From NCBI GenBank assembly GCA_050115495.1, contig JASFQK010000022.1, forward strand, positions 1 to 64,000: a DNA stretch of 64,000 nt, in the 5' to 3' direction. The stretch is from Phycisphaerae bacterium (GTDB taxonomy: Bacteria > Planctomycetota > Phycisphaerae > UBA1845 > Fen-1342). Below the pieces are notes generated by a model. That model did no database searches. It was not told the DNA's origin and was given only the letters and a program-made list of their open reading frames with translations. A program made the translations under genes and the position numbers. Below, piece by piece: positions 1,278-20,615 of the stretch (position 1 is its first letter; the number at the start of each line of letters is the position of its first letter).

Positions 1278-2264
1278 TCAGGTGAGAAACGCGACGGCGC
1301 GGCGGAAGAGGGCCAGGCCGTCGCCGGCTTCGTCGCCGGGCCGTGCGGTCCAGCACGGATGCTGCGTGCGGGTGACGAAACGCTCGGGATGCGGCATGAG
1401 GCCGAGGACGCGGCCGGTTTCATCGCACAGGCCGGCGATGTCGCCCTCGCTGCCGTTGGGATTGGCCGGGCCTTCGTAGCGGCCGGTCTCCGTGCCGGCC
1501 GTCGAACGCTGTTGAGCATCGGCACTGGTGGGCGAGCCACCTGTGGCACCCGACGAGTCGGCCGTCGAACGTTGCTGAACGCCCGCACTGGTGGGCAAGC
1601 CACCAGTGCCACCCGACTCGCGCGAGCCGCCGGTGACACCGGGTTCCACGTACCGCAGCGCGCGGTGGCCGCCGGCGAGGACGCGATCGAGCCCGGCCGC
1701 GTCGGAGAAGACCACCCGCCCTTCCCCGTGGGCGATCGGCATCTCGTACCTGCGCCCCTGCTTCAGAAACGCGCAGCGCTGCGTGTCGGCGGCGAGCGTC
1801 ACCCAGCGGTCCTGAAAGCCGGGCGGCTCGTTGTACGTGATGGTGCACGTTCTCCGATCCGCCACCTCGCGAACCGGCAGCAGACCGAGTTGCACCAGTA
1901 CCTGAAAACCGTTGCAGATGCCGAGCACGAGCTTGCCGGCGTCGACGAAGCAGGAAATCGCGTCGAGCAGATGGCGACGGAGCTGCGCCGCGAGGATCCG
2001 CCCGGCGGCGATGTCGTCTCCATAGCTGAAACCGCCGGGCAGCGTGAGCACCTGGCATTGATCCAGCAACGCCGGCTCGGCAATGAGTCGGCGGACGTGC
2101 ACGCGCTCGGCCGTCGCTCCGGCCAGCTCCCAGGCGTGCTGAGTCTCCAGGTCGCAATTGGTGCCGGCGGCACGCAAGATCAACACTCGGACAGCGGCCA
2201 ACTGTGCCACTCCTGCGCTGCGGCCGCGGCGATACTCGGCGCCGCCGCCTTGAAACTCACTCAC
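1278..2264 (-). CDS. purQ: Phosphoribosylformylglycinamidine synthase glutaminase subunit, with an internal insertion
   Basis: Motifs RAAGTNCD, LPGGFSYGD, LGICNGFQ, PIAHGEG, NPNGS, GLMPHPER. About 50 aa of repeat-derived insertion precedes NPNGS. Start may be GTG 2210. Confidence 0.95.
   Translation of the reverse strand: MSEFQGGGAEYRRGRSAGVAQLAAVRVLILRAAGTNCDLETQHAWELAGATAERVHVRRLIAEPALLDQCQVLTLPGGFSYGDDIAAGRILAAQLRRHLLDAISCFVDAGKLVLGICNGFQVLVQLGLLPVREVADRRTCTITYNEPPGFQDRWVTLAADTQRCAFLKQGRRYEMPIAHGEGRVVFSDAAGLDRVLAGGHRALRYVEPGVTGGSRESGGTGGLPTSAGVQQRSTADSSGATGGSPTSADAQQRSTAGTETGRYEGPANPNGSEGDIAGLCDETGRVLGLMPHPERFVTRTQHPCWTARPGDEAGDGLALFRRAVAFLT
1476..1617. repeat. Composite REP-like insertion inside purQ (GTAG-palindrome plus two 63-bp units)
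   Basis: GTAGCGGCCGGTCTCCGTGCCGGCCGT at 1476-1502. GCACTGGTGGGC(A/G)AGCCACC(A/T)GTG at about 1522 and 1585. Period 63 bp. Near-identical copies at 17277-17433 and 18961-18989. Confidence 0.8.
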
Positions 2265-3645: not shown

Positions 3646-3718
<73 letters not shown>

Positions 3719-4143: not shown

Positions 4144-4172
4144 TTGACACGCCCCGCATGGATCGTCATACT
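4144..4172 (+). promoter_or_regulatory. Sigma70-type promoter of the his operon
   Basis: TTGACA (4144-4149), 17 bp spacer, CATACT (4167-4172), just upstream of the leader ATG. Confidence 0.75.
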
Positions 4173-4181
4173 GGGTTTGTT

Positions 4182-4247
4182 ATGAACTCGTCGCGGATGC
4201 ACCATCATCATCACCATCATCACCACCCGGTGTGCGGGGCTGGATGA
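4182..4247 (+). CDS. hisL: his operon leader peptide MNSSRMHHHHHHHHHPVCGAG
   Basis: Nine consecutive His codons (4200-4226) between a promoter and a terminator upstream of hisG. Too short for the ORF track. Confidence 0.9.
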   Translation: MNSSRMHHHHHHHHHPVCGAG

Positions 4248-4287
4248 TGGTGCGGTCTGACGACGCGGTCGCCTGATTGACACCAAA

Positions 4288-4319
4288 GACGCCGGCCTCG
4301 GGTCGGCGTCGTTCTTTTT
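4288..4319 (+). terminator. Attenuator terminator hairpin
   Basis: GACGCCGGCC-TCG-GGTCGGCGTC stem followed by GTTCTTTTT. Confidence 0.85.
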
Positions 4320-4376: not shown

Positions 4377-5342
4377 GTGGCACGAGCGAACAACACAGCG
4401 GAAATCAGCCAGACCCAAGCGAACCCGCCCGCGGAGAACCGGCCGGTGGCGGAGCACGCGGTCATCCGGCTCGCCCTGCCCAAGGGGCGGATGCAGGAGG
4501 GCGTGCTCGGCCTGCTGGCCGGCGCCGGCATCCGCGTAACGGGCGGGCCGCGGGCCTACCGGCCGAGCGTCTCGCTGGCGGGCTTTTCGGCCAAGGTCCT
4601 CAAGCCCCAAAACATCGTCGAGATGCTGCACGTCCGCTCACGCGACCTGGGCTTCGCCGGGGCGGACTGGGTGGCCGAGCTGGAGGCCGACGCCGTCGAG
4701 CTGCTGGACACCGGCCTCGATCCCGTCCGCTTGGTGGCCGCGGCGCCACGGGGCACGTTCACGGGCGGCTGCGCCGGTGGACCGATCGCAGGCGATGGGC
4801 GGTCGGCGCACCGTCCCCTCGTCGTCGCCTCTGAGTACGAACGGCTCACCCGGCGCTGGATCGAGCGCCGCCGGCTCAACGCCGTGTTCGTCCGCTCGTA
4901 CGGGGCCACGGAGGTTTTCCCGCCCGAGGACGCCGACTGCGTTGTGGACCTGACCGCCACCGGGGCCACGCTCGAAGCCAACGGCCTGGAGATCATCGAT
5001 GAGCTGATGACCTCGTCCACGCGGCTGTATGCCAGCCCCGCCGCTTTGGAGGACGCCGGACGGCGAGAGGCGATCGAACGGTTCGTGCTGCTGCTCCGCT
5101 CGGTGCTGGAGGCTCGGCGGCGGGTCATGCTGGAGGTCAACGTCACCGCCGAGAAGCTCGAAGCGGTCATCGCCGCGCTGCCGTGCATGCGGCAGGCCAC
5201 CATCGCCCCGCTGCACGGTGAGGCCGGCTACGCGGTGAAAGCCGCTGTCCCGCGGAGCGAGCTGCCGCGTGTCATCCCCGAGGTCAAGGCGCGGGGCGGC
5301 AGTGACTTGGTGGTCAGCGACCTCTCGCAGATTGTCCCGTGA
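4377..5342 (+). CDS. hisG: ATP phosphoribosyltransferase (long form)
   Basis: RLALPKGRM, DLGFAGADW, SYGATE, VVDLTATGATLEANGL, plus a C-terminal regulatory domain. GGAGG precedes GTG 4377. Confidence 0.95.
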   Translation: MARANNTAEISQTQANPPAENRPVAEHAVIRLALPKGRMQEGVLGLLAGAGIRVTGGPRAYRPSVSLAGFSAKVLKPQNIVEMLHVRSRDLGFAGADWVAELEADAVELLDTGLDPVRLVAAAPRGTFTGGCAGGPIAGDGRSAHRPLVVASEYERLTRRWIERRRLNAVFVRSYGATEVFPPEDADCVVDLTATGATLEANGLEIIDELMTSSTRLYASPAALEDAGRREAIERFVLLLRSVLEARRRVMLEVNVTAEKLEAVIAALPCMRQATIAPLHGEAGYAVKAAVPRSELPRVIPEVKARGGSDLVVSDLSQIVP

Positions 5343-6538
5343 CCTGGAGGTGTGTAGCCGTGAGCGAAGCACGCGTGAACGAGATATCTGAGCTGACTGC
5401 CGCTGCCGGCGTGGCGGGCGTGGCCCCCTATCGCGCCCCGCAGCCGCAGCCGCACGTCGACCTTCGGCTCGACAGCAACGAGGGCATCATGCCCGACGCC
5501 GGTCTGCTCGGACTGCTGCGCGACGCCGGTGCGGCGGTGCTGCGCGAGTATCCGGCCGCGAGCGAATTGGAGAAGCTGCTGGCCCAGCGGCTGGGTGTTG
5601 AGCCGGCGCAGGTGCTGGTGACCGCCGGGGCGGATGAGGCCCTCGACCGGGTGTGCCGGGCCTACCTCGCGCCCGGCCGGGAGTTGGTCCTGCCGGTGCC
5701 GGCGTTTGAGATGCTGGAGCGGTACGCACGCCTGGCCGGGGCCGGCGTAGTGACCGCGCCCTGGCTGGCGGGTGCGTATCCGCGGGCGGCCGTTCTCGCG
5801 GCGGTCACGCCAAGGACTAGCGCCATCGCCGTGGTCAGCCCGAACAACCCCACCGGCGCCGTCGCGTCCGCGGCCGACCTGGAAGCGTTGTCGTCAGCGG
5901 CGCCACGGGCGTTGCTGATCGTGGACGCCGCCTACACGGAGTTCGCCGACGAGGATCTGACGCCGGTCGCGCTGGGGCTGCCGAACGCCGTCGTCGTGCG
6001 CTCGCTGTCGAAGGCCTGGGGCCTGGCCGGTCTGCGCGTCGGCTACGCCGCCGGTTCGCAGCGGCTCATCGACGCGCTGCGGGCCGCGGGGAGTCCATAC
6101 TCCGTCTCCGGCCCGTCGCTCGCGCTCGCCGCGGCCTGGCTCGAACGAGGGCCGGCCCGGGTGCATCACTTCGTCACCCGCGTTCAGGCCGAGCGCCTCG
6201 CGTTGTCGCGTCTGCTGCGTGAGTTGGACGCCGAGCCGCTGCCCTCGCAGGCGAACTTTGTGCTGGCTCGCTTTCGCTATGCACGCGGCGTGTACGACGG
6301 TCTGGCGGGACTGGGCATCGCGGTGCGGATGTTTCCCGGCCGGCCGGAGCTGGACGGACAGTTGCGTATCACGTGTCCGGGTGACGTCGCGTCATTCGAC
6401 CGATTGACTGCGGCGTTGCGGACGGTGCTGGGCGAGCCGGCGGGCGGTGAACCGGCACCCACAGCGACTGGGTCGAGTCACCCCGACACCGCGTGCCCAC
6501 CGAGAGACAACAGGAACTCCGAGGACCTACTGACATGA
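5339..6538 (+). CDS. hisC: Histidinol-phosphate aminotransferase
   Basis: LDSNE, SPNNPTG, DAAYTEF, RSLSKAWGLAGLRVGY, PSQANFVL. Start may be GTG 5360. Confidence 0.93.
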   Translation: MTWRCVAVSEARVNEISELTAAAGVAGVAPYRAPQPQPHVDLRLDSNEGIMPDAGLLGLLRDAGAAVLREYPAASELEKLLAQRLGVEPAQVLVTAGADEALDRVCRAYLAPGRELVLPVPAFEMLERYARLAGAGVVTAPWLAGAYPRAAVLAAVTPRTSAIAVVSPNNPTGAVASAADLEALSSAAPRALLIVDAAYTEFADEDLTPVALGLPNAVVVRSLSKAWGLAGLRVGYAAGSQRLIDALRAAGSPYSVSGPSLALAAAWLERGPARVHHFVTRVQAERLALSRLLRELDAEPLPSQANFVLARFRYARGVYDGLAGLGIAVRMFPGRPELDGQLRITCPGDVASFDRLTAALRTVLGEPAGGEPAPTATGSSHPDTACPPRDNRNSEDLLT

Positions 6539-7122
6539 CCACTCGAAGTGCCGAGATCAAAAGAGCCACATCGGAGACCGACATTCGCCTCTGCCTGCTC
6601 CTCGACGGAACCGGGCAGGTCGAGGTCGCGACCGGCATCGGTTTTCTGGACCACCTGCTCGCCGCGCTGGCCCGGCACGCCGGCTTCGACCTGGCGCTGA
6701 GCTGCGGAGGCGACCGGCACGTGGACGATCATCACAGCGCTGAGGATTGCGGCCTGGTCCTGGGGTCGGCCATCGATCAGGCGCTGGGCGAGCGTCGCGG
6801 GATCGTGCGTTTCGGTTCCGCCTACGCGCCGCTGGACGAATCGCTGGCCCGCGCGGTCGTTGACCTTTCCGGCAGACCGTTTGCCGCCGTCGACCTGGGC
6901 CTGAGGCGAGAGACCCTGGGTGGACTGGCCTGCGAGAACGTCGGGCACGTGCTGCGTTCGCTGGCGACGACCGCGCGGGCGACGCTGCACGTGGACGTGC
7001 TGCGCGGCGAGAACGATCACCACCGGGCGGAGGCGGCGTTCAAGGCCACGGCCCTGGCGCTTCGCCGGGCGGTGACGCTAACCGGTGCGAACGAGATACC
7101 CAGCACGAAGGAGGTGCTCTGA
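6535..7122 (+). CDS. hisB: Imidazoleglycerol-phosphate dehydratase (monofunctional)
   Basis: RATSETDI, TGIGFLDHLL, DDHHSAED, NDHHRAEAAFKA, PSTK. ATGA overlap with hisC. Confidence 0.95.
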   Translation: MTTRSAEIKRATSETDIRLCLLLDGTGQVEVATGIGFLDHLLAALARHAGFDLALSCGGDRHVDDHHSAEDCGLVLGSAIDQALGERRGIVRFGSAYAPLDESLARAVVDLSGRPFAAVDLGLRRETLGGLACENVGHVLRSLATTARATLHVDVLRGENDHHRAEAAFKATALALRRAVTLTGANEIPSTKEVL

Positions 7123-7745
7123 TGGCCCGACCGGAGGTGATCGTGGTCCGCACGGGCGTCGCGAACGTGGCCTCCGTCGTCGCCGGTCTGCTGCGAGCCG
7201 GCGGCGCACCGCGCCTGACGAGCGACGCTGAAGAGGTGCGCTCTGCCGAGCGCGTCGTGTTGCCGGGCGTGGGCGCGTTCGCGGCCGGGATGAGCTGCCT
7301 GCGTGGTGCCGGGCTTGACACTGCGCTGAAGGACCGCATTGCCGCGGGCCGGGCAACGCTGGCGGTCTGTCTGGGGCTGCAACTGCTGTGTGAGGGCAGC
7401 GAGGAAGACGTGGACGAAGCGGGGCTTGGCGTGCTGCGTGGATGTGCGTCGCGTTTCCCCGAGTCGGTGAGCGTGCCGCAGCTCGGGTGGAACCGCGTCG
7501 AGCCGGATGCCGGCTGCCGCCTGCTGCGGCCGGGTTACGCATACTTCGCCAATTCGTACCGGCTCGCCAATGGGCCGGTCGGCTGGCCGGCGGCCTATGC
7601 CGAGCACGGCGGCCGGTTCGTCGCCGCCGTCGAGACCGACTGCGTGCTGGCCTGCCAGTTTCACCCGGAGTTGTCGGGAACGTGGGGCACGGAGCTGCTG
7701 GGCCGCTGGCTCGCCGGCAGCGGGCGGGGAGGTGAGCGATGCTGA
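7122..7745 (+). CDS. hisH: Imidazole glycerol phosphate synthase, glutaminase subunit
   Basis: VLPGVGAF, VCLGLQLL, PQLGWN, YFANSY, CQFHPE. Confidence 0.95.
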   Translation: MARPEVIVVRTGVANVASVVAGLLRAGGAPRLTSDAEEVRSAERVVLPGVGAFAAGMSCLRGAGLDTALKDRIAAGRATLAVCLGLQLLCEGSEEDVDEAGLGVLRGCASRFPESVSVPQLGWNRVEPDAGCRLLRPGYAYFANSYRLANGPVGWPAAYAEHGGRFVAAVETDCVLACQFHPELSGTWGTELLGRWLAGSGRGGERC

Positions 7746-8494
7746 CCGTGCGGATCATCCCCTGTCTCGATGTGAGCGATGGCCGGGTGGTCAAGGGCGT
7801 TCGCTTCGATCGGCTCCGTGACGTCGGCTCACCTGCGGACCTCGCCGGTCGCTACGAGCGGCAAGGCGCCGACGAGATCGTTCTCCTGGACGTGAGTGCC
7901 ACGCCACAAACGCGGTCAACGTGCCTGGAGACGGTCCGACAAGTTCGCGAGCGATTGGCCATTCCCTTGACCGTGGGCGGCGGCGTGCGATCGGTGGCGG
8001 ACGCGGCTGCGCTGCTCGAAGCGGGTGCCGACCGCGTGGCCATCAATACGGCTGCGGTGCGGCAACCTGAGCTGATCGGCGAGATGGCAGCCCGCTTCGG
8101 CCGGCAGTGCATTGTCGTATCACTGGATGCGGCGCGGTCCACACAAGACGGTTGGGAAGTTCTCGTTTGCAGCGGACGCGAGCGAACAGGTATCGACGCG
8201 ATCGACTGGGCCCGGAACGCTCAGTCACAGGGCGCTGGTGAGATTCTGCTGACGAGCTGGGACCGCGACGGGACGCAGGCCGGATACGACCTCGAACTCC
8301 TCGCGGCCGCTTCGGCGGCGCTCTCGGTGCCGATCATCGCCTCCGGCGGCGCGGCAGGGACTGGCCACCTGCTGGCTGCGGTCCGCGCGGGTGCCGACGC
8401 GGTCCTGGCGGCGTCCATCTTCCATGACGAACGCCTCATGGTGTCCGACGTGAAGGCAGTGTTGAGGGACTCGGGTGTGGAGGTGCGATTGTGA
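7739..8494 (+). CDS. hisF: Imidazole glycerol phosphate synthase, cyclase subunit
   Basis: RIIPCLDV, VVKGVRF, LTVGGGVR, GEILLTSWDRDGT, IIASGGA, LAASIFH. Confidence 0.96.
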   Translation: MLTVRIIPCLDVSDGRVVKGVRFDRLRDVGSPADLAGRYERQGADEIVLLDVSATPQTRSTCLETVRQVRERLAIPLTVGGGVRSVADAAALLEAGADRVAINTAAVRQPELIGEMAARFGRQCIVVSLDAARSTQDGWEVLVCSGRERTGIDAIDWARNAQSQGAGEILLTSWDRDGTQAGYDLELLAAASAALSVPIIASGGAAGTGHLLAAVRAGADAVLAASIFHDERLMVSDVKAVLRDSGVEVRL

Positions 8495-9765
8495 TTGTGC
8501 CATCGATTGACCTCATGGACGGCCGCGCCGTGCAACTGGTCGGCGGCCGCGAGAAAGTGCTCGACGCCGGCGATCCTCGACCGATCGCCGAGCGGTTTCG
8601 CCTGGCCGGCGAGATCGCGGTGATCGACCTCGACGCGGCGTTGGGACGCGGCTCGAACGCGGCAGTGATTCGTGACCTGTTGCGCATCGCCCCGTGCCGC
8701 GTGGGCGGCGGAATCCGCGACGCGGGCACCGCGTTGGAGTGGCTCGACGCCGGCGCTCACCAGGTCATCCTCGGCACGGCGGCGACTCCTGAGGTTCTGA
8801 GCCAGTTACCAAGCGAGCGGGTCATTGCCGCGCTCGACGCGGACGATGGCGAAGTCGTCGTGGAGGGTTGGCGGAAGCGCACCGGCCGGGGTGTCGCCGA
8901 GCGGATGAAGGAGCTGACCGGTCTGGTCGGCGGCTACCTGGTGACGTTTGTCGAACGTGAGGGCCGTCTGGCGGGTGTTGATATGGAGCGAGCCAGACAG
9001 CTCGTTGATCATGCGGGCGGCGCCCGGATCACGTTCGCGGGGGGAATCACAACGGCCGCTGAGATTGCCGAACTGGATCGACTCGGGGCGGACGCCCAGG
9101 TGGGCATGGCGATCTACACGGAACGACTCGAACTCGGCGCTGCCATCGCCGCCCCGCTCACCTCGGACCGCCCTGACGGCCTGTGGCCAACGGTCGTGGT
9201 CGACGAGCACGGCATTGCTTTGGGGCTGGCGTGGTCGAACCTGGAGAGCGTGTGCACGGCGGTGCGTACGCGGCGCGGCGTCTACCATTCGCGCTCACGC
9301 GGACGGTGGGTCAAGGGTGAGACTTCCGGCGCCACACAGGAACTGCTGCGTGTTGACCTCGACTGTGACCGTGACGCGCTGCGGTTTGCGGTGCGGCAAC
9401 GCGATCCGGGCTTCTGCCATCAGGGCACGCGCACTTGCTGGGGCTCCGACCGCGGACTGACGGCGTTGCCGAGACGCTTGAATCAGCGTGCGGAAAACGC
9501 GCCCCCGGGATCGTACACGCGGCGATTGCTTGATGATGCGCACCTCCTGCGAGCGAAGCTGATCGAAGAAGCCGGCGAGCTGGCGGACGCGGCGACGACG
9601 GGCGAAATCGCGGCCGAGGCGGCCGACTTGTTCTACTTCGCGTCGGTCGCCTTGGTGCGCGGCGGCGTGTCATTGGAAACCGTGGCGGACGAGCTGGATC
9701 GCCGGGCGCTGCGTATCACGCGCCGCCGCGGCGACGCAAAGACCACCCCGGAGCGCCAACCATGA
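8491..9765 (+). CDS. Fusion of a HisA-like barrel, HisI cyclohydrolase and HisE pyrophosphatase
   Basis: N-terminal IVPSIDLMDGRAVQL, IDLDAA, VGGGIR. Middle KGETSG...DCDRDAL...FCH..TRTCW (HisI). C-terminal SYTRRLL...KLIEEAGE...EAADLFYF (HisE). Confidence 0.9.
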   Translation: MIVPSIDLMDGRAVQLVGGREKVLDAGDPRPIAERFRLAGEIAVIDLDAALGRGSNAAVIRDLLRIAPCRVGGGIRDAGTALEWLDAGAHQVILGTAATPEVLSQLPSERVIAALDADDGEVVVEGWRKRTGRGVAERMKELTGLVGGYLVTFVEREGRLAGVDMERARQLVDHAGGARITFAGGITTAAEIAELDRLGADAQVGMAIYTERLELGAAIAAPLTSDRPDGLWPTVVVDEHGIALGLAWSNLESVCTAVRTRRGVYHSRSRGRWVKGETSGATQELLRVDLDCDRDALRFAVRQRDPGFCHQGTRTCWGSDRGLTALPRRLNQRAENAPPGSYTRRLLDDAHLLRAKLIEEAGELADAATTGEIAAEAADLFYFASVALVRGGVSLETVADELDRRALRITRRRGDAKTTPERQP

Positions 9766-11051
9766 ATACGTCCCTGCTCCGGCGCATCGACGCCGACGAA
9801 GTGCCGACGCTCCGCCGCGGTCCCGTGGACGCCGAGACATCGGCCGCGGCTGCGGCGATTGTCGACGATGTCAGAACGCGTGGCGCCGCGGCGGTCCGCG
9901 AGCACGCCGAGCGTCTGGGTGACCTGCGCCCCGGCGAGCCACTGATTCGTGAAGAGACCGAATTGCGAAACGCCCTTCGAGCGCTCGACGCGGCGCAGCG
10001 AGGGTTGCTGGAACGGACCGCCGCCCGCATTCGCGCGTTTGCCGAAGCGCAACGGCGCTGCCTGACCGACCTGACGTTTCCGATTGTCGGCGGCACGGCG
10101 GGTCACACCGCCGAGCCGCTGCAGTGCGCCGGCTGCTACGCACCGGCGGGGCGCTATCCGTTGCCCTCGTCCGTCCTGATGACCGCGGTCACCGCGCGCG
10201 TGGCCGGCGTCGAAGAGGTCTGGGTCGCGTCACCGCGGCCCACAGCGCTCACGCTGGCCGCGGCGGCCGTTGCCGGCGCAGACGCGCTGTTGGCGGTGGG
10301 CGGGGCGCAGGCGATTGCGGCTCTGGCCTACGGCGCCGCACCTGTGCCGCCCTGCGATGTGATTGTCGGACCGGGCAACCGTTGGGTGACCGCGGCGAAG
10401 AAGCTCGTCGCCGGCACCGTGTCGATTGACATGCTCGCCGGTCCATCGGAGCTGGTCATTCTAGCCGACGGCTCGGCCAATCCTGCGGTCGTCGCCGCGG
10501 ATCTGCTCGCTCAGGCCGAGCACGACGCCGATGCGCTGCCGGTGCTGATCGCGCTGGACAGCGACCTGGCCGTGGCCGTGGAGCGTGAGCTGGAGCAACA
10601 ACTCCGAGAGCTTCCGACGGCCGACACCGCACGAACGGCACTGGCGAACGGATTCGTCGTGCTCGCGGAATCGATCGAGGCGGCCGCTGCGCTGTGCGAT
10701 CGCCTGGCCCCTGAGCATCTGCACGTCGTCCTGCGCAACGCGGGAACGGTCGCCAGCCGCCTGCGGCACTACGGGGCCCTGTTCATCGGCGAGAGTAGCG
10801 GCGAAGTCCTGGGCGACTACGGCGCCGGACCCAACCATGTGTTGCCTACCGGCGGCACCGCCCGCTCAACAGGTGGCCTCTCTGTGTTGAGCTTCCTGCG
10901 GTTGAGGACCTGGCTGCGGATGGACGACGTCGCCGGCGCGAGCGCCTTGGCAGAGGACGCGGCTGAATTCGCCCGGTTGGAGGGGCTTGAGGCACACGCG
11001 CGGGCGGCCGAGCACCGAATGTGCCGCAATCACCACCGCCCGATGTCGTAG
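9762..11051 (+). CDS. hisD: Histidinol dehydrogenase
   Basis: PLPSSVLM, GGAQAIAALAYG, GPGNRWV, IDMLAGPSE, DLLAQAEH, APEHL, GDYGAGPNHVLPT, EGLEAH. ATGA overlap with the previous gene. Confidence 0.96.
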   Translation: MNTSLLRRIDADEVPTLRRGPVDAETSAAAAAIVDDVRTRGAAAVREHAERLGDLRPGEPLIREETELRNALRALDAAQRGLLERTAARIRAFAEAQRRCLTDLTFPIVGGTAGHTAEPLQCAGCYAPAGRYPLPSSVLMTAVTARVAGVEEVWVASPRPTALTLAAAAVAGADALLAVGGAQAIAALAYGAAPVPPCDVIVGPGNRWVTAAKKLVAGTVSIDMLAGPSELVILADGSANPAVVAADLLAQAEHDADALPVLIALDSDLAVAVERELEQQLRELPTADTARTALANGFVVLAESIEAAAALCDRLAPEHLHVVLRNAGTVASRLRHYGALFIGESSGEVLGDYGAGPNHVLPTGGTARSTGGLSVLSFLRLRTWLRMDDVAGASALAEDAAEFARLEGLEAHARAAEHRMCRNHHRPMS

Positions 11052-15091: not shown

Positions 15092-16024
15092 ATGCTGAAG
15101 ATCACCTGGGCAGACATCGCCGGAGAGGACGAGTCGCTGGCTCGCTGCCTGGGAGTGGTGCTGGAGGCGGCGGGCGGGCGAAGGCCATACGACGAGCTGG
15201 TGAGCCTGCTGGGGCTGGGGGCGGCGACGGTGGCCGTGGAGGGGATGAACCCATCGTGGTGGCCGACGTGCGGGCGGGATGTGGCCCTGGATTCGACGGC
15301 GGTGCTGCTGGGGATGCGGGTCCGAGAACTGCACCCCCCTGCCGCGGCGGTCGGACTCGAACGGTCCAGCGAGTATGCGGCGCATTTTCGGGATAGCTAT
15401 GCGCCGCTGGTACGGGTGGCACTGGCGAACGATCAGCCGGTGCTGGCGTGGTGCGGGTGGCCGGCGCCGGCGGAGCGGTGCTGGGGCGTGATCGTACGGG
15501 CGCGTGAGGAGGCGCTGATCGGGTACGTCGGCGGGCATGACGGGCAGCCGGTGGAGCTCGTTGGGCCGGCGCTGCAAGCGCACGTGATCGAGGATTGCCA
15601 CCCCACCGCCGCGACGGCGGAGCAGCATCCAGCGTTGTTCGAGCATGCGGTGCGTGTGGCGGAAATGTGGTATCGGGGTGGGATGCGCGAAGGAGCGGTG
15701 CGGACGGGGGCGGCGGCGTGGGCGCTGTGGGGCGAGGTCGTGGCGCAGCAGGTTGTGCCGGCGGAGTGGCACCTGCCGGCGATTCGGGCGGTGGTCGACG
15801 GGCGACGGTGCCTGGCGGCGTGGCTCGAACACATCGCCGGTGACCTGAACGCCGGCCAGCGGGCCATCGCCGACGAGTGGCTGGACACGTGTGCCGAGGT
15901 GGCGGCGCTGCTGGCGCCGCTGGTGTTACGGCCGGAAGAGGCGACGCTGGCGAAGGCGATTGCGGCGGCCGGCCGGCGTGAGGCCGCCCTGCTACCCCGG
16001 CTGGCCAAGGTGGGGCATACATGA
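15092..16024 (+). CDS. Hypothetical protein coupled to dprA (possibly BtrH/papain-like fold)
   Basis: Coding-like codon use and ATGA overlap with dprA. The segment ALANDQPVLAW...WGVIV is only weakly suggestive of fold. Confidence 0.6.
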   Translation: MLKITWADIAGEDESLARCLGVVLEAAGGRRPYDELVSLLGLGAATVAVEGMNPSWWPTCGRDVALDSTAVLLGMRVRELHPPAAAVGLERSSEYAAHFRDSYAPLVRVALANDQPVLAWCGWPAPAERCWGVIVRAREEALIGYVGGHDGQPVELVGPALQAHVIEDCHPTAATAEQHPALFEHAVRVAEMWYRGGMREGAVRTGAAAWALWGEVVAQQVVPAEWHLPAIRAVVDGRRCLAAWLEHIAGDLNAGQRAIADEWLDTCAEVAALLAPLVLRPEEATLAKAIAAAGRREAALLPRLAKVGHT

Positions 16025-17175
16025 CGAACACCATTACCGAGACGGGGCGGCTGTACCTGCGATGGGCGCTGACCGACGGTATCGGCCCGATCACGTTCAC
16101 ACGCGTGCTGAACCACTTCGGCGACGCGGCGGTGGCGTTGGGGGCGAGTGCGGTCGAGTTCGAGAAGGTTCACGGCATCGGCCGCGTGCTGGCGGACAAG
16201 GTGGTGCGCTCGCGCGACGAGGCAGCGATCGACGGCGAGATTGAGGCCGCGGCGGCGAACGGGGCGCGGATTATCTGTCGGGCGGATCCCGAGTATCCGC
16301 CGGGGCTGAGGCAGATTCCGGATGCGCCGATTGTGCTGTTCGTGAAGGGGGAGCTGCGCGAGACGGACACCGTTGCCATGGCCATCGTCGGCACGCGGCG
16401 GTGCAGTATCTACGCGGGCGAGCAGGCCCGGCGGTTCGGCGAGCTGCTGGCCGGAGCGGGGCTGACGGTGGTCAGCGGGCTGGCGCGCGGCGTCGATGCG
16501 TTCGCGCACCATGGGGCGCTCGACGCGGGCGGCCGGACGTTAGCCGTGCTCGGGGCGGGGTTGACGGAGATCTATCCGCCGGAGAACGCCAGTCTGGCGG
16601 AGCGGATTCTGCCGAACGGAGCGTGGATCAGCGAATTGCCGATGTGCACGTCGGTTCGGCGGGAGAACTTCCCGAGCCGGAACCGGATCATCGCCGGCAT
16701 GACGCTGGGGACGTTGGTCATCGAGGCGCCGATGCGGAGCGGGGCGCTCATCACGGCGCGGCTGGCGAGCGATTACAACCGCGAGGTCTTCGCCGTTCCG
16801 GGGCGACTTCAGGAACCGACGGCGGCAGGCACGAATGCCCTGATCCGCGATGGTGTGGCCAAGCTGGTGACGTGCCTCGAAGACGTGCTCGATGAGCTGG
16901 GCGAGGTCGGGCTGAAGCTGCGGGCGACGGGCGGCGCCGAGCCCGATGCCAAGCCCGCGGGTGGCGAGCCGGGCGGCGCGGTGCCGGTTCGCCTGTCGGC
17001 GGCGGAGGAGCGCGTCCTGAGCATCGTGCCGGTCGAGCCGATGTTGCAGGATGTGGTCCTGCGGGCGGCGGAGCTGCCGCCGGGAGAGGTGCTCGCGGCG
17101 CTGACCACGCTCGAATTGAAGGGGCTGGTCAAGCGCTGGCCGGGGAACCTGGTGTCCCGGGGGCGGCAGGCGTAG
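16021..17175 (+). CDS. dprA: DNA-processing protein DprA
   Basis: AIVGTR, VVSGLARGVD, AVLGAG, FPSRNRIIAG, SGALITA, REVFAVPG, GTNALIRDG, C-terminal winged helix. Confidence 0.95.
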   Translation: MTNTITETGRLYLRWALTDGIGPITFTRVLNHFGDAAVALGASAVEFEKVHGIGRVLADKVVRSRDEAAIDGEIEAAAANGARIICRADPEYPPGLRQIPDAPIVLFVKGELRETDTVAMAIVGTRRCSIYAGEQARRFGELLAGAGLTVVSGLARGVDAFAHHGALDAGGRTLAVLGAGLTEIYPPENASLAERILPNGAWISELPMCTSVRRENFPSRNRIIAGMTLGTLVIEAPMRSGALITARLASDYNREVFAVPGRLQEPTAAGTNALIRDGVAKLVTCLEDVLDELGEVGLKLRATGGAEPDAKPAGGEPGGAVPVRLSAAEERVLSIVPVEPMLQDVVLRAAELPPGEVLAALTTLELKGLVKRWPGNLVSRGRQA

Positions 17176-19145: not shown

Positions 19146-20615
19146 ATGACCGTCTGTGAGTCTGCCGGGCTGCCCGCGTCGCTGGCGTGGGCGCGTACGT
19201 TTCTGCCGGACTACTTCTCCGCCGACCCGGCCCCCTTCCATGTTGAGCTGATGGGCGACCTGGAGGATCCCGCCCGCCGACTGATCGCCCGGATCGCGCC
19301 GCGCGGGCATGCGAAGAGCACGTGTGCTGCCCTGGCCTACCCGCTGTGGTGCCTGTGCGAGCAGCGGCGGCGGAATATCGTGATCATCACGCATGAATCG
19401 TCGCTGGCTCGCCAGTTTGTTCGCGATATCCGCACGGAGCTTGAGGCCAACGAGCTGCTCCTCGAACGGTACGGCGATCTCGCCGTCGACGCGCCGCCCG
19501 CTCCCGCCGGCCGGAAGCGGAAGAGGACGACGCGCGGTAAGTGGACGGAGGAGAAGTTCACGACGTGCAGCGGGCTGACGGTGCAGGCCAAGGGATCGGG
19601 GGCGAGTTTTCGCGGGACGCGCGTCGGCCCGCAACGACCCGACCTCATCATCTGCGACGACATCGAGAAGGACGAGGAGATGGCCTCCGCCGACAGCCGG
19701 CAGAAGCTGGAGTACTGGCTGCGGCGAGTGGTCATGCCGGCCCTGTCGCCGGACGGGCAGCTCATCGTGGTCGGTTCGCTGATTCACCACGATTCGCTGC
19801 TGGCGCGGCTGCGGGATCGGCGGCGGTTTCCGCGGTGGGACTACAAGGTCTACCGGGCGATCGAGGCGCGGCAGGCCGAGAACGGCCAATGGTACCGGGT
19901 GGCGCTGTGGCCGGGTCGGTGGCCGCTGGAACGGCTGGAGGAGGAGCGGGCTCGCATCGGTACGCTGGCGTTCGAGCAGGAGTACATGGCCAACCCGATC
20001 GACGACTCGATCCGCGTCTTTCCGCAGAAATGGCTGAGGCGCTACGATCCGGTGGAGCTCGAAACGCGCGGTGATTCGCTGGTGACGCTGATGGCCGCGG
20101 ACCCGGCGACGGGTGCGGCTGACGGAGACTTCTTCGCGCTGTGGATCGGCAGCCTCGATCTGTCGACGGGGATTATCTACACGCGCGAATTGACGATCGA
20201 ACGCATCGGCATCGTCGAGCAGGTCAGACGTATCGAGTCGGCGGCGTTGCGCTGGCGGCCGGTGAAGATCGGCATCGAGACGGCCGCGTACCAGGTGGCG
20301 CTCAAGGACGTGCTCGATGACAACAGCCGGCGGCGACGCCTGTATCTGCCGATCGTGGGCTTGGTGACGACGGCGAACAAAGTGGCCCGCATCGTGGGTT
20401 CGTCGCCGTTTTACGAGAACGGGACGTTTCTGCTGCCGCCGGTGCTGGACCCGGAAGTGGAGGCGCAGTTTCTGCAATTCCCAAAGAGCAAGCACGATGA
20501 CGCGCCGGATGTGTGCGCGATGGGCATCGAGCTGGCCCGAACGCTGCGCGGCGGGCGGCTGGAGGGCCTGTCCCGCCGGCAGCAGAAGGGTCCCGCTCAA
20601 CGCGGAGAGTGGTGA
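19146..20615 (+). CDS. Phage-type terminase large subunit (orphan)
   Basis: Walker A APRGHAKST, Walker B RPDLIICDDIE, AFEQEYMANP, nuclease motifs AADPA and FPKSKHDDAPD. Confidence 0.88.
   Translation: MTVCESAGLPASLAWARTFLPDYFSADPAPFHVELMGDLEDPARRLIARIAPRGHAKSTCAALAYPLWCLCEQRRRNIVIITHESSLARQFVRDIRTELEANELLLERYGDLAVDAPPAPAGRKRKRTTRGKWTEEKFTTCSGLTVQAKGSGASFRGTRVGPQRPDLIICDDIEKDEEMASADSRQKLEYWLRRVVMPALSPDGQLIVVGSLIHHDSLLARLRDRRRFPRWDYKVYRAIEARQAENGQWYRVALWPGRWPLERLEEERARIGTLAFEQEYMANPIDDSIRVFPQKWLRRYDPVELETRGDSLVTLMAADPATGAADGDFFALWIGSLDLSTGIIYTRELTIERIGIVEQVRRIESAALRWRPVKIGIETAAYQVALKDVLDDNSRRRRLYLPIVGLVTTANKVARIVGSSPFYENGTFLLPPVLDPEVEAQFLQFPKSKHDDAPDVCAMGIELARTLRGGRLEGLSRRQQKGPAQRGEW

Follow-up and report, generated by a model that had tools for sequence, protein, structure and literature searches.

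A region of 130-220 residues stands at the N-terminus of fungal His4, ahead of HisI, HisE and HisD; in the available text of Fani et al. 2007 (PMC1963479) its function is unexplained, it is without prokaryotic counterpart, and a structural role is guessed. The question raised here is whether this region can be traced to a gene found in 64,000 nucleotides of a Phycisphaerae bacterium (assembly GCA_050115495.1, contig JASFQK010000022.1, positions 1 to 64,000; this whole stretch is termed the window). The window carries on its forward strand a complete, attenuator-led histidine operon in the order hisG-hisC-hisB-hisH-hisF-hisA-I-E-hisD, which ends with a fusion of HisA, HisI and HisE (A-I-E) and a separate hisD (Table 1). 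In our judgement it is very likely that this operon encodes an active trifunctional A-I-E enzyme under attenuation control, that operons of this type were transferred to eukaryotes, and that His4 consists of a decayed HisA, HisI and HisE of this descent together with a foreign HisD.

The 424-residue product of hisA-I-E matched three Pfam families above their cut-offs, PF00977 (residues 1-213), PF01502 (HisI, 246-317) and PF01503 (HisE, 325-405), and its open reading frame (ORF) overlaps both neighbors, hisF and hisD, by 4 nt. The overlap with hisD is the ATGA at 9762-9765, in which the A-I-E stop occupies 9763-9765 and hisD is read in a different frame. An earlier note on this sequence had described just this arrangement, and all the motifs that it quoted are present in the translation: PSIDL (D7), TFVEREG (E157), SDRPDGLWPTVVVD, GVYHSRSR, APPGSYTRRLLDD and TRRRGDAK. 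A scan of GTDB genomes yielded at least 388 relatives of hisA-I-E, the best 80 of which are the basis of the locus counts given here. The gene order in these 80 loci was mostly G C B H F AIE D, and a frameshift or assembly artefact was ruled out as the source of the fusion, because all 80 keep A-I-E in a single frame (76 as A-I-E and 4 as A-I-E-D). The HisI and HisE residues of Table 1 form a D-C-D...C-H...C pattern, which we take to be the HisI metal motif, and an EExxE...ExxD pattern, presumably the HisE motif; they are invariant in the 80-row alignment of the clade. An AlphaFold model of the protein, built from the same alignment, reached a predicted local distance difference test score (pLDDT) of 92.7 and a predicted template modelling score of 0.88, and its top Foldseek matches in the PDB were PriA/HisA structures, e.g., 5a5w with a root-mean-square deviation (rmsd) of 1.9 Å, with HisIE/HISN2 ranked lower. 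Neither a His4 nor an A-I-E structure was among the best 60 of 68 matches of a PDB sequence search.

The N-terminal region of fungal His4 was compared with this barrel by profile and by predicted fold. The fungal set comprised named His4 proteins and others assigned by similarity and HisD motif. After removal of P0211 (which lacks the DRxD motif) and of N-termini under 140 residues, 138 N-termini, cut 8 residues before HisI, were filtered for redundancy at 70%, and the resulting 75 were used to build a hidden Markov model (HMM). When it was run against the 29,830 six-frame ORFs that the window genome yields, this HMM ranked the window barrel first (E 4.7e-7, residues about 80-204), followed by a canonical HisA (0.069) and HisF (0.35). 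Alignment of the fungal N-termini with the 80 clade barrels by hhalign gave a probability of 97.9% (E 3.6e-13) over 161 collinear columns, versus 44.6% for HisF and 0.05% for the reversed control. An AlphaFold2 model of residues 1-210 of the Actinomortierella His4 protein, based on an alignment of 87 rows that included no bacterial barrels, had a pLDDT of 95.4 and consisted of eight strand-helix units forming a (βα)8 barrel. The best Foldseek match of this model was PriA (2y85, E 7e-7), then HisA, and a VIA search of 48,161 chains placed HisA (4gj1) at the top (Z 18.1, rmsd 2.5 Å, 186 residues); a comparison of the fungal N-terminus with the ESM Atlas returned a single cluster at 0.77 and was uninformative. 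Motifs of the catalytic face have been lost from the fungal N-termini, GGG[IVL] being found in 1 of 75, the loop-6 motif in none and GW in 1, and those of the opposite face have been kept, with L[DN]xG[AVIT] in 46 of 75 and Px[EDSN]R[LIVFM] in 57 of 75 (69 of 81 in the clade). Pfam detected a barrel in none of seven fungal N-termini, and this blindness, together with the lost motifs, fits the report of no homology in the available text of Fani et al. (PMC1963479). Judged from these profiles and the predicted fold, what stands at the N-terminus of fungal His4 is a HisA barrel of the A-I-E family that has decayed, as had been suspected in the earlier note.

The HisI and HisE domains lead in the same direction. 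In a HisI tree (86 rows, 104 columns) the bacterial clade fell into one group, supported at 100/97, with 11 rows of protist type, 19 from fungi and 3 unassigned, and all 24 ordinary HisI sequences lay outside it. The corresponding HisI-E tree (50 rows, P0144 having been dropped for want of a HisE match) united the clade and the eukaryotes at 100/99, the fungi forming a group at 96/97. Forcing the fungi together with ordinary HisIE was rejected by the approximately unbiased (AU) test (p=0.003). On the strength of these trees, fungal HisI-E belongs with the A-I-E clade and not with ordinary HisIE, and the earlier proposal that the HisI-E portion is closer to His4 than to ordinary HisIE is upheld by domain-wise phylogeny. 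The yeast motif TDRPDGLYTTLVVD, cited in the earlier note, is indeed present in the published alignment (PMC1963479, in the portion available). The HisE motifs were read not from yeast itself but from a consensus over 87 rows, most of them fungal, which has SAPxGSYTxRLFxD and ITRRPGNAK.

A different picture emerged for HisD. The window HisD is on average 60% identical to that of the clade and 55% to the protist proteins, with values of 36% for fungi and 37% for E. coli, and fungal HisD is on average 58-59% identical to Balneolota and plant/algal HisD. The motif GCYAPAGRYPLPSS of the clade, as present in the window hisD, is unlike the fungal GLYVPGGTAVLPST. In a HisD tree (36 rows, 429 columns) the fungi (99/99) grouped with plants, a red alga and Balneolota at 100/97, and with E. 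coli at 100/100, and five protist HisD sequences (100/99) were nested within the operon clade (100/99). Joining the fungi to the operon clade cost 169 log-likelihood units and was rejected (p-AU 4e-46; 36 of 62 rows were used). The closest stand-alone relatives of fungal HisD among the named matches were from other fungi, plants, algae and Balneolota, and the available text of Fani et al. (PMC1963479) likewise places fungal with plant HisD. Because the HisI-E and HisD trees conflict, His4 is, on the evidence of these sequences, a chimera whose decayed A, I and E derive from the clade and whose D derives from a plant/Balneolota/E. coli-like lineage. The idea that the operon, with A-I-E and its own hisD, represents the pre-fusion state of fungal His4 is not borne out for HisD. 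Compared with fungal HIS4 (PMC1963479, in part), the window gene shares the HisI-E lineage, homologous N-terminal barrel, HisI and HisE, the signatures DRxDGLxPTxVxD, LGLxYS, GVYxS and GFCH, and the same domain order; its barrel is intact, whereas the fungal one is without catalytic loops and unseen by Pfam. HisI, HisE and HisD do not form one polypeptide in the window, where hisD is a separate gene and not of the fungal/plant lineage, in contrast to the fused fungal domain. Schizosaccharomyces and Hyaloraphidium were also seen to have stand-alone HisD of the fungal type, and Diphylleia rotans a relative of it (P0423, P0431, P0426, P0436), an observation relevant to the question whether separate genes are the ancestral state or arose by fission.

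The bacterial barrel retains most of the HisA active site. In an alignment with E. coli HisA, its D7, D46, R76, D116 and W127 correspond to D7, D50, R83, D129 and W145, and E157 takes the place of D176; the position of R226 is occupied by Met. According to the available part of PMC9088769, the catalytic acid is D176, the substrate ProFAR (phosphoribosylformimino-aminoimidazole carboxamide ribonucleotide) is stacked upon by W145, and R83 grips its second phosphate. The acid position, Asp176 in Salmonella, lies in loop 6. D46, R76, D116, W127 and E157 were found in all 80 clade barrels and D7 in 79 (one is truncated), a conservation inflated by the selection of these barrels for closeness to the query (61-73%). 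Asp is absent from the acid position, which is Glu in 80 of 80, and the same residue occupies it in six of six extracted matches to the His6-type model TIGR02129, four of them above cut-off (L174 was not extracted and L180 was left out). A literature search found no paper stating that His6/HISN3 uses a Glu acid.

Of the 80 locus genomes, 50, chosen chiefly among those whose loci were longer, entered a census, which detected canonical HisA above cut-off in only three and none in the other 47; no search with the His6-type model was made in the 50. Genomes without canonical HisA include single-contig or complete chromosomes (G008, G017, G042, G045). The window genome (G000) yielded no His6-type match at E<=1e-40 and contains a second, stand-alone canonical hisA on contig C21 at about 15500-16260 (L081:6499-7263, minus strand; TIGR00007 252 bits, cut-off 229). 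The earlier statement that the barrel is the only hisA thus holds within the operon and fails for the genome. The three further genomes with a stand-alone canonical hisA are all uncultured Planctomycetales, so that this gene may have been left over from a native set of dispersed his genes. The C21 gene lies far from the operon, near ORFs that by eye are OmpA-like and purH-like. Given the residues at its active site, the window barrel is probably an active HisA that uses Glu as its acid, and its REG in place of RDG can no longer be taken as a sign of weakening. With canonical HisA (TIGR00007), PriA and His6-type HisA it shares the (βα)8 fold and the equivalents of the catalytic base D7 and of D129, W145 and R83, which bind the substrate, and with the His6 type also the Glu; it differs from all three in a shorter alpha4, in its fusion to HisI-E and in scores under both equivalog cut-offs.

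Relatives of the fusion with additional domains were examined among 120 listed longer homologues. Of these, 112 are A-I-E-D fusions of 806-950 residues, the named ones being bacterial and labelled by NCBI only as 'histidinol dehydrogenase', and the other eight are multi-fusions of greater size or different build, including five from named amoebozoans (Acanthamoeba, Paramoeba, Stygamoeba, Protostelium and Clastostelium). The heptafunctional Acanthamoeba protein has 1,682 residues, and the origin of the fusion is left open in the available text of PMC6029752. Its H, F, A, I, E, D and G domains are 44-59% identical to the window genes versus 28-46% to those of E. coli; the barrel is intact, with PSID and TFVEREG (59% identical), HisI and HisE are of the clade type, as is HisD (57%), and H-F-A-I-E-D follow each other as in the operon. 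In Acanthamoeba a single chain carries the domains and HisG has shifted to its end, in contrast to seven ORFs in the window. Throughout the amoebozoan fusions, the H, F, A, I, E, D and G domains, and B in P0108, are closer to the window than to E. coli, the one outgroup used. A decayed barrel also stands before HisI in P0124, from the choanoflagellate Hartaetosiga (E 2e-4 with the clade HMM), and in P0232 (E 2.5e-5 with the clade HMM, 3e-11 with the fungal HMM), which is termed stramenopile-like solely on the basis of Oomycota/diatom clusters at 0.92-0.96 in the ESM Atlas. On this comparison of sequences, the amoebozoan fusions are direct eukaryotic heirs of the operon, and the choanoflagellate protein, too, is a closer heir than fungal His4. 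At rank 5, the ESM Atlas also listed for P0232 a HisIE cluster of ~300 residues (0.87), 62% archaeal and mostly from Promethearchaeota (Asgard).

In bacteria, the best 80 loci belong to Planctomycetota, Myxococcota/Deltaproteobacteria, Gemmatimonadota, Sumerlaeota, Acidobacteriota and some alphaproteobacterial metagenome-assembled genomes (MAGs). Their E/D junctions showed a possible 4-nt overlap in 44 cases, another overlap in 13, a gap in 9 and fusion in 4, and in the remaining 10 D was missing from the fetched DNA or from that strand. Ordinary hisI and the fusion type both occur within the phylum of the window and within Myxococcota, and this patchy distribution suggests that the A-I-E operon spread horizontally across many bacterial phyla. 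The fusion itself is already in print. Bacterial trifunctional proteins that unite PRA-PH and PRA-CH with a ProFAR isomerase are mentioned in passing for some Gammaproteobacteria and Spirochaetia by Witek et al. 2021 (PMC8102479), whose sequence network sets the HIS4 of fungi close to sequences related to Myxococcales, and for archaea PMC11237513 notes fusions of HisA/F to HisIE. These have the same three-domain architecture as the window protein; in the available portions of both papers, no link of the isomerase domain to the His4 N-terminus and no bacterial A-I-E-D form is stated. The fusion is real and common, and its chemistry is ordinary. Six HisA-HisI(-E) fusions (L104, L109, L113, L125, L126 and P0131) branch more deeply and have a more ordinary HisI; P0131, an 860-residue fusion with HisD, has Glu at the acid position (TLVDREG). 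They are possibly a stem group of the fusion clade. In nine loci (L010, L013, L020, L024, L039, L043, L048, L050 and L079) the hisH and hisF matches lie in one stop-to-stop frame, possibly forming a HisH-HisF fusion such as is found at the start of the Acanthamoeba protein.

Several observations weigh against the interpretation offered here, and they are best considered along with the alternatives. The structural rank of the fungal model is by itself weak evidence among TIM barrels (HPS Z 16.5, HisF-LUCA 16.3), the clade HMM singly matches only 9 of the 75 fungal N-termini at E<0.001, and the fungal set is drawn mostly from Mucoromycota, Mortierellomycota and Basidiomycota. The S. cerevisiae N-terminus, known here from the published alignment only (PMC1963479, in part), has ~133 residues and is ~50 columns short, so that its barrel is probably incomplete; it retains FLNNGVSSLFI and VPKERVVV. 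The fungal region might be a TIM barrel taken from canonical HisA, HisF or His6 and fused independently to clade-type HisIE, since His6 (2agk), HisF and others match the model at Z 15-16.5 and identity to the clade barrel is only ~20%. We give this derivation very little credence: E-values of the fungal profile are five orders of magnitude better for the clade barrel than for canonical HisA or HisF, a short alpha4 and an LPxER/IPxER loop are shared with the clade and absent from both E. coli and C21 HisA, and the match is collinear from residue 1, with equal spacing into HisI. The bacterial barrel, in turn, could itself be catalytically dead or weak, with stand-alone hisA performing the step. 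This would suit the substitutions at Asp176 and R226, the scores under the HisA cut-offs (TIGR00007 140.4 vs 228.95; TIGR02129 31.8 vs 229.3) and the canonical hisA of the window genome, where the barrel could be dispensable, and of three of the 50 census genomes; most of the 50 are MAGs without completeness figures, and one (G025) holds a third match of 121.6 bits. Loss of activity is nevertheless hard to reconcile with invariant active-site residues, with the Glu of His6-type enzymes and with the 47 genomes in which canonical HisA was not found, and it appears improbable.

The descent of His4 may also be read differently. Loss of the stop codon between A-I-E and hisD, or inheritance of an A-I-E-D protein, would make fungal His4 a single unit from the clade, in keeping with the same domain order, the possible overlap at 44 of 80 junctions, the four true A-I-E-D loci, the 112 four-domain fusions among the listed homologues and the choanoflagellate P0124, in which a decayed barrel, I and E are joined to a clade-type D. 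For the present D domain, however, this is ruled out by the AU test, and the low identity, the different motif and the grouping of fungal with plant HisD in Fani et al. (PMC1963479, in part) agree; whole-unit descent is highly improbable and survives only as an ancestral architecture followed by replacement of D, in which case the fungal ancestor may have had the A-I-E-D form. As to the direction of transfer, 20 of the 22 eukaryote-type rows came together in the HisI-E tree at only 46/76, the bootstrap being unsettled, and the eukaryotes did not form one supported clade in the short HisI and HisI-E trees. The multi-fusions P0108 and P0126 were placed among bacteria in a 38-row group, apart from the other eukaryote-type rows, and HisC in P0118 and P0123 is no closer to the window HisC than to that of E. 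coli. The poor resolution within this group and the placement of these two proteins would be compatible with bacterial copies obtained from eukaryotes, or with several eukaryotic acquisitions. Against such a reversed or mixed course stand the deeper A-I-E fusions outside the group (L109, L125 and L126 from prokaryote genomes, and P0131), the nesting of protist HisD inside the bacterial clade, and the unfused operon with its attenuator that bacteria have kept; we regard it as unlikely.

The favoured account, transfer of a bacterial A-I-E operon to eukaryotes with later decay of the barrel in fungi, can be put in terms of steps. As its sequence suggests, the A-I-E protein would catalyze steps 2-4 of histidine synthesis: HisE would convert phosphoribosyl-ATP to phosphoribosyl-AMP, HisI would convert the latter to ProFAR, and the barrel, with D7 as base and E157 as acid in place of the usual Asp176, would isomerize ProFAR to its phosphoribulosyl form, PRFAR. 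Operons of this clade would have supplied his genes to eukaryotes, where amoebozoans keep intact fusions of the H-F-A-I-E-D-G type; in fungi the barrel would have lost its catalytic loops, kept its fold and become the region described as 'unknown' at the His4 N-terminus. In yeast, His6 is a protein of its own (structure 2agk), and the decay probably occurred because His6 carries out the HisA step. More tentatively, and with somewhat less than even confidence, we propose that an early eukaryote took up the whole operon before the split of Amoebozoa and Opisthokonta, or perhaps earlier since stramenopile-like A-I-E proteins with a decayed barrel exist, that the dead barrel, whose final helix continues directly into HisI, was for this reason retained in a structural or regulatory role, and that fungi replaced or re-fused HisD from a plant/Balneolota-like source. 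If so, yeast HIS4 carries a fourth domain that has gone unrecognised, a dead HisA, and records an operon transfer and a domain swap.

HIS4 is a classic yeast gene, and identification of the dead HisA would answer the question of its N-terminus and open this region to truncation, ligand-binding and structural work. The bacterial gene would serve as the intact reference and represents a Glu-acid HisA subfamily under current HisA model cut-offs. The conflict between the HisI-E and HisD trees would explain why earlier trees set fungal HisIE apart, and warns against treating the fused HIS4 as one evolutionary marker. A search of the open-access literature found no paper that identifies the N-terminus of His4 as a HisA barrel or annotates a TIM barrel there, and this origin, as proposed here from sequence and model, appears not to be in print there; the search covered neither subscription papers nor AlphaFold DB, ECOD, TED and InterPro, in any of which a TIM barrel at this position may already be visible. 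The same literature yielded no statement of these points from his4 N-terminal genetics and none of the operon transfer, and the available parts of PMC5850734 and PMC8305728 added nothing.

The operon is probably under His-codon attenuation control, to judge from its leader. Upstream of hisG lies a leader with consecutive His codons and, after it, a terminator, as in leaders of the hisL type. A weak Rfam match to Thr_leader spans 4185-4317 (E 0.093, under the gathering score), and there was no His-leader among the five Rfam matches at E<=1. Of 59 related loci, 33 have a comparable leader upstream, defined by at least four His within 10 residues, and none of 168 control windows does. Like hisLGDC(NB)HAF(IE) of E. 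coli and Salmonella, the operon is compact, with gene overlaps and a His-codon leader and terminator; it differs in its order G-C-B-H-F-(AIE)-D, in a monofunctional HisB without phosphatase and in the fusion of HisA to HisIE. The 4-nt overlaps suggest that its genes are probably translationally coupled. The His-rich leaders of related loci often end in -AG before the stop. Leaders 5' of hisG in Gemmatimonadota/Palauibacter (L051, L067, L070, L071) read like MTNTHAFFGHYYYHR..., with His mixed with Phe/Tyr codons, and would perhaps sense aromatic amino acids as well.

Table 1. Features of the histidine operon and of the A-I-E protein (positions in the window)
Feature	Position	Strand	Evidence and remarks
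sigma70-like promoter, TTGACA-17-CATACT	4144..4172	+	10/12 matches; 50 shuffles gave a mean of 0.0 sites; match to the consensus alone
His-rich leader peptide, 21 aa, ATG at 4182	4182..4247	+	9 His codons in a row, 4200-4226
Intrinsic terminator-like hairpin and U tract	4288..4319	+	-19.4 kcal/mol, z -3.3
hisG, long form	about 4377..5342	+	PF01634 and PF08029; TIGR00070 above cut-off
hisC	5339..6538	+	PF00155; top NCBIfam match TIGR01141, 217 bits, under cut-off of 277
hisB, dehydratase only	about 6535..7122	+	PF00475; NF002111 above cut-off; phosphatase domain absent; start 6535 inferred from overlap with hisC stop
hisH	7122..7745	+	TIGR01855 above cut-off
hisF	7739..8494	+	TIGR00735 above cut-off; stop shares 4 nt with GTG of hisA-I-E
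hisA-I-E ORF, 424 aa, GTG start	8491..9765	+	Three Pfam domains, all above cut-offs
HisA (βα)8 barrel, residues 1-220	8491..9150	+	PF00977, 136 bits; AlphaFold2 and Foldseek; D7 8509-8511, E157 8959-8961
HisI (PR-AMP cyclohydrolase)	9160..9447	+	PF01502; D291-C292-D293, C309-H310, C316
HisE (PR-ATP pyrophosphohydrolase)	9457..9708	+	PF01503; TIGR03188 above cut-off; E359, E360, E363, E376, D379
hisD, separate ORF	9762..11051	+	PF00815 and TIGR00069 above cut-off

Some further features of the locus and of its relatives were recorded. The operon contains no histidinol-phosphate phosphatase gene, its hisB encoding the dehydratase alone, and the eukaryotic relatives P0118 and P0126 append HisC and a HAD domain. 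A tblastn search of a plasmid collection for named outgroups was set aside, its matches being for the most part redundant hisI of Klebsiella: 495 of the 616 matching records were from Klebsiella, and the 19 Klebsiella rows listed were hisI-annotated matches with identical scores on large plasmids. An ORF at 19146-20615 (+), directly after a cysS-like ORF, resembles by eye the large subunit of a phage terminase and is possibly the start of a prophage; an NCBIfam scan gave no match for it at E<=1e-20. A tRNA gene (Rfam RF00005) lies at 3646-3718, just 5' of the his promoter region. A PurQ-like ORF at 1278-2264 (-) matches NF002252 over residues 25-208 (197 bits, below cut-off) and carries, near its C-terminus, an apparent repeated low-complexity insertion.

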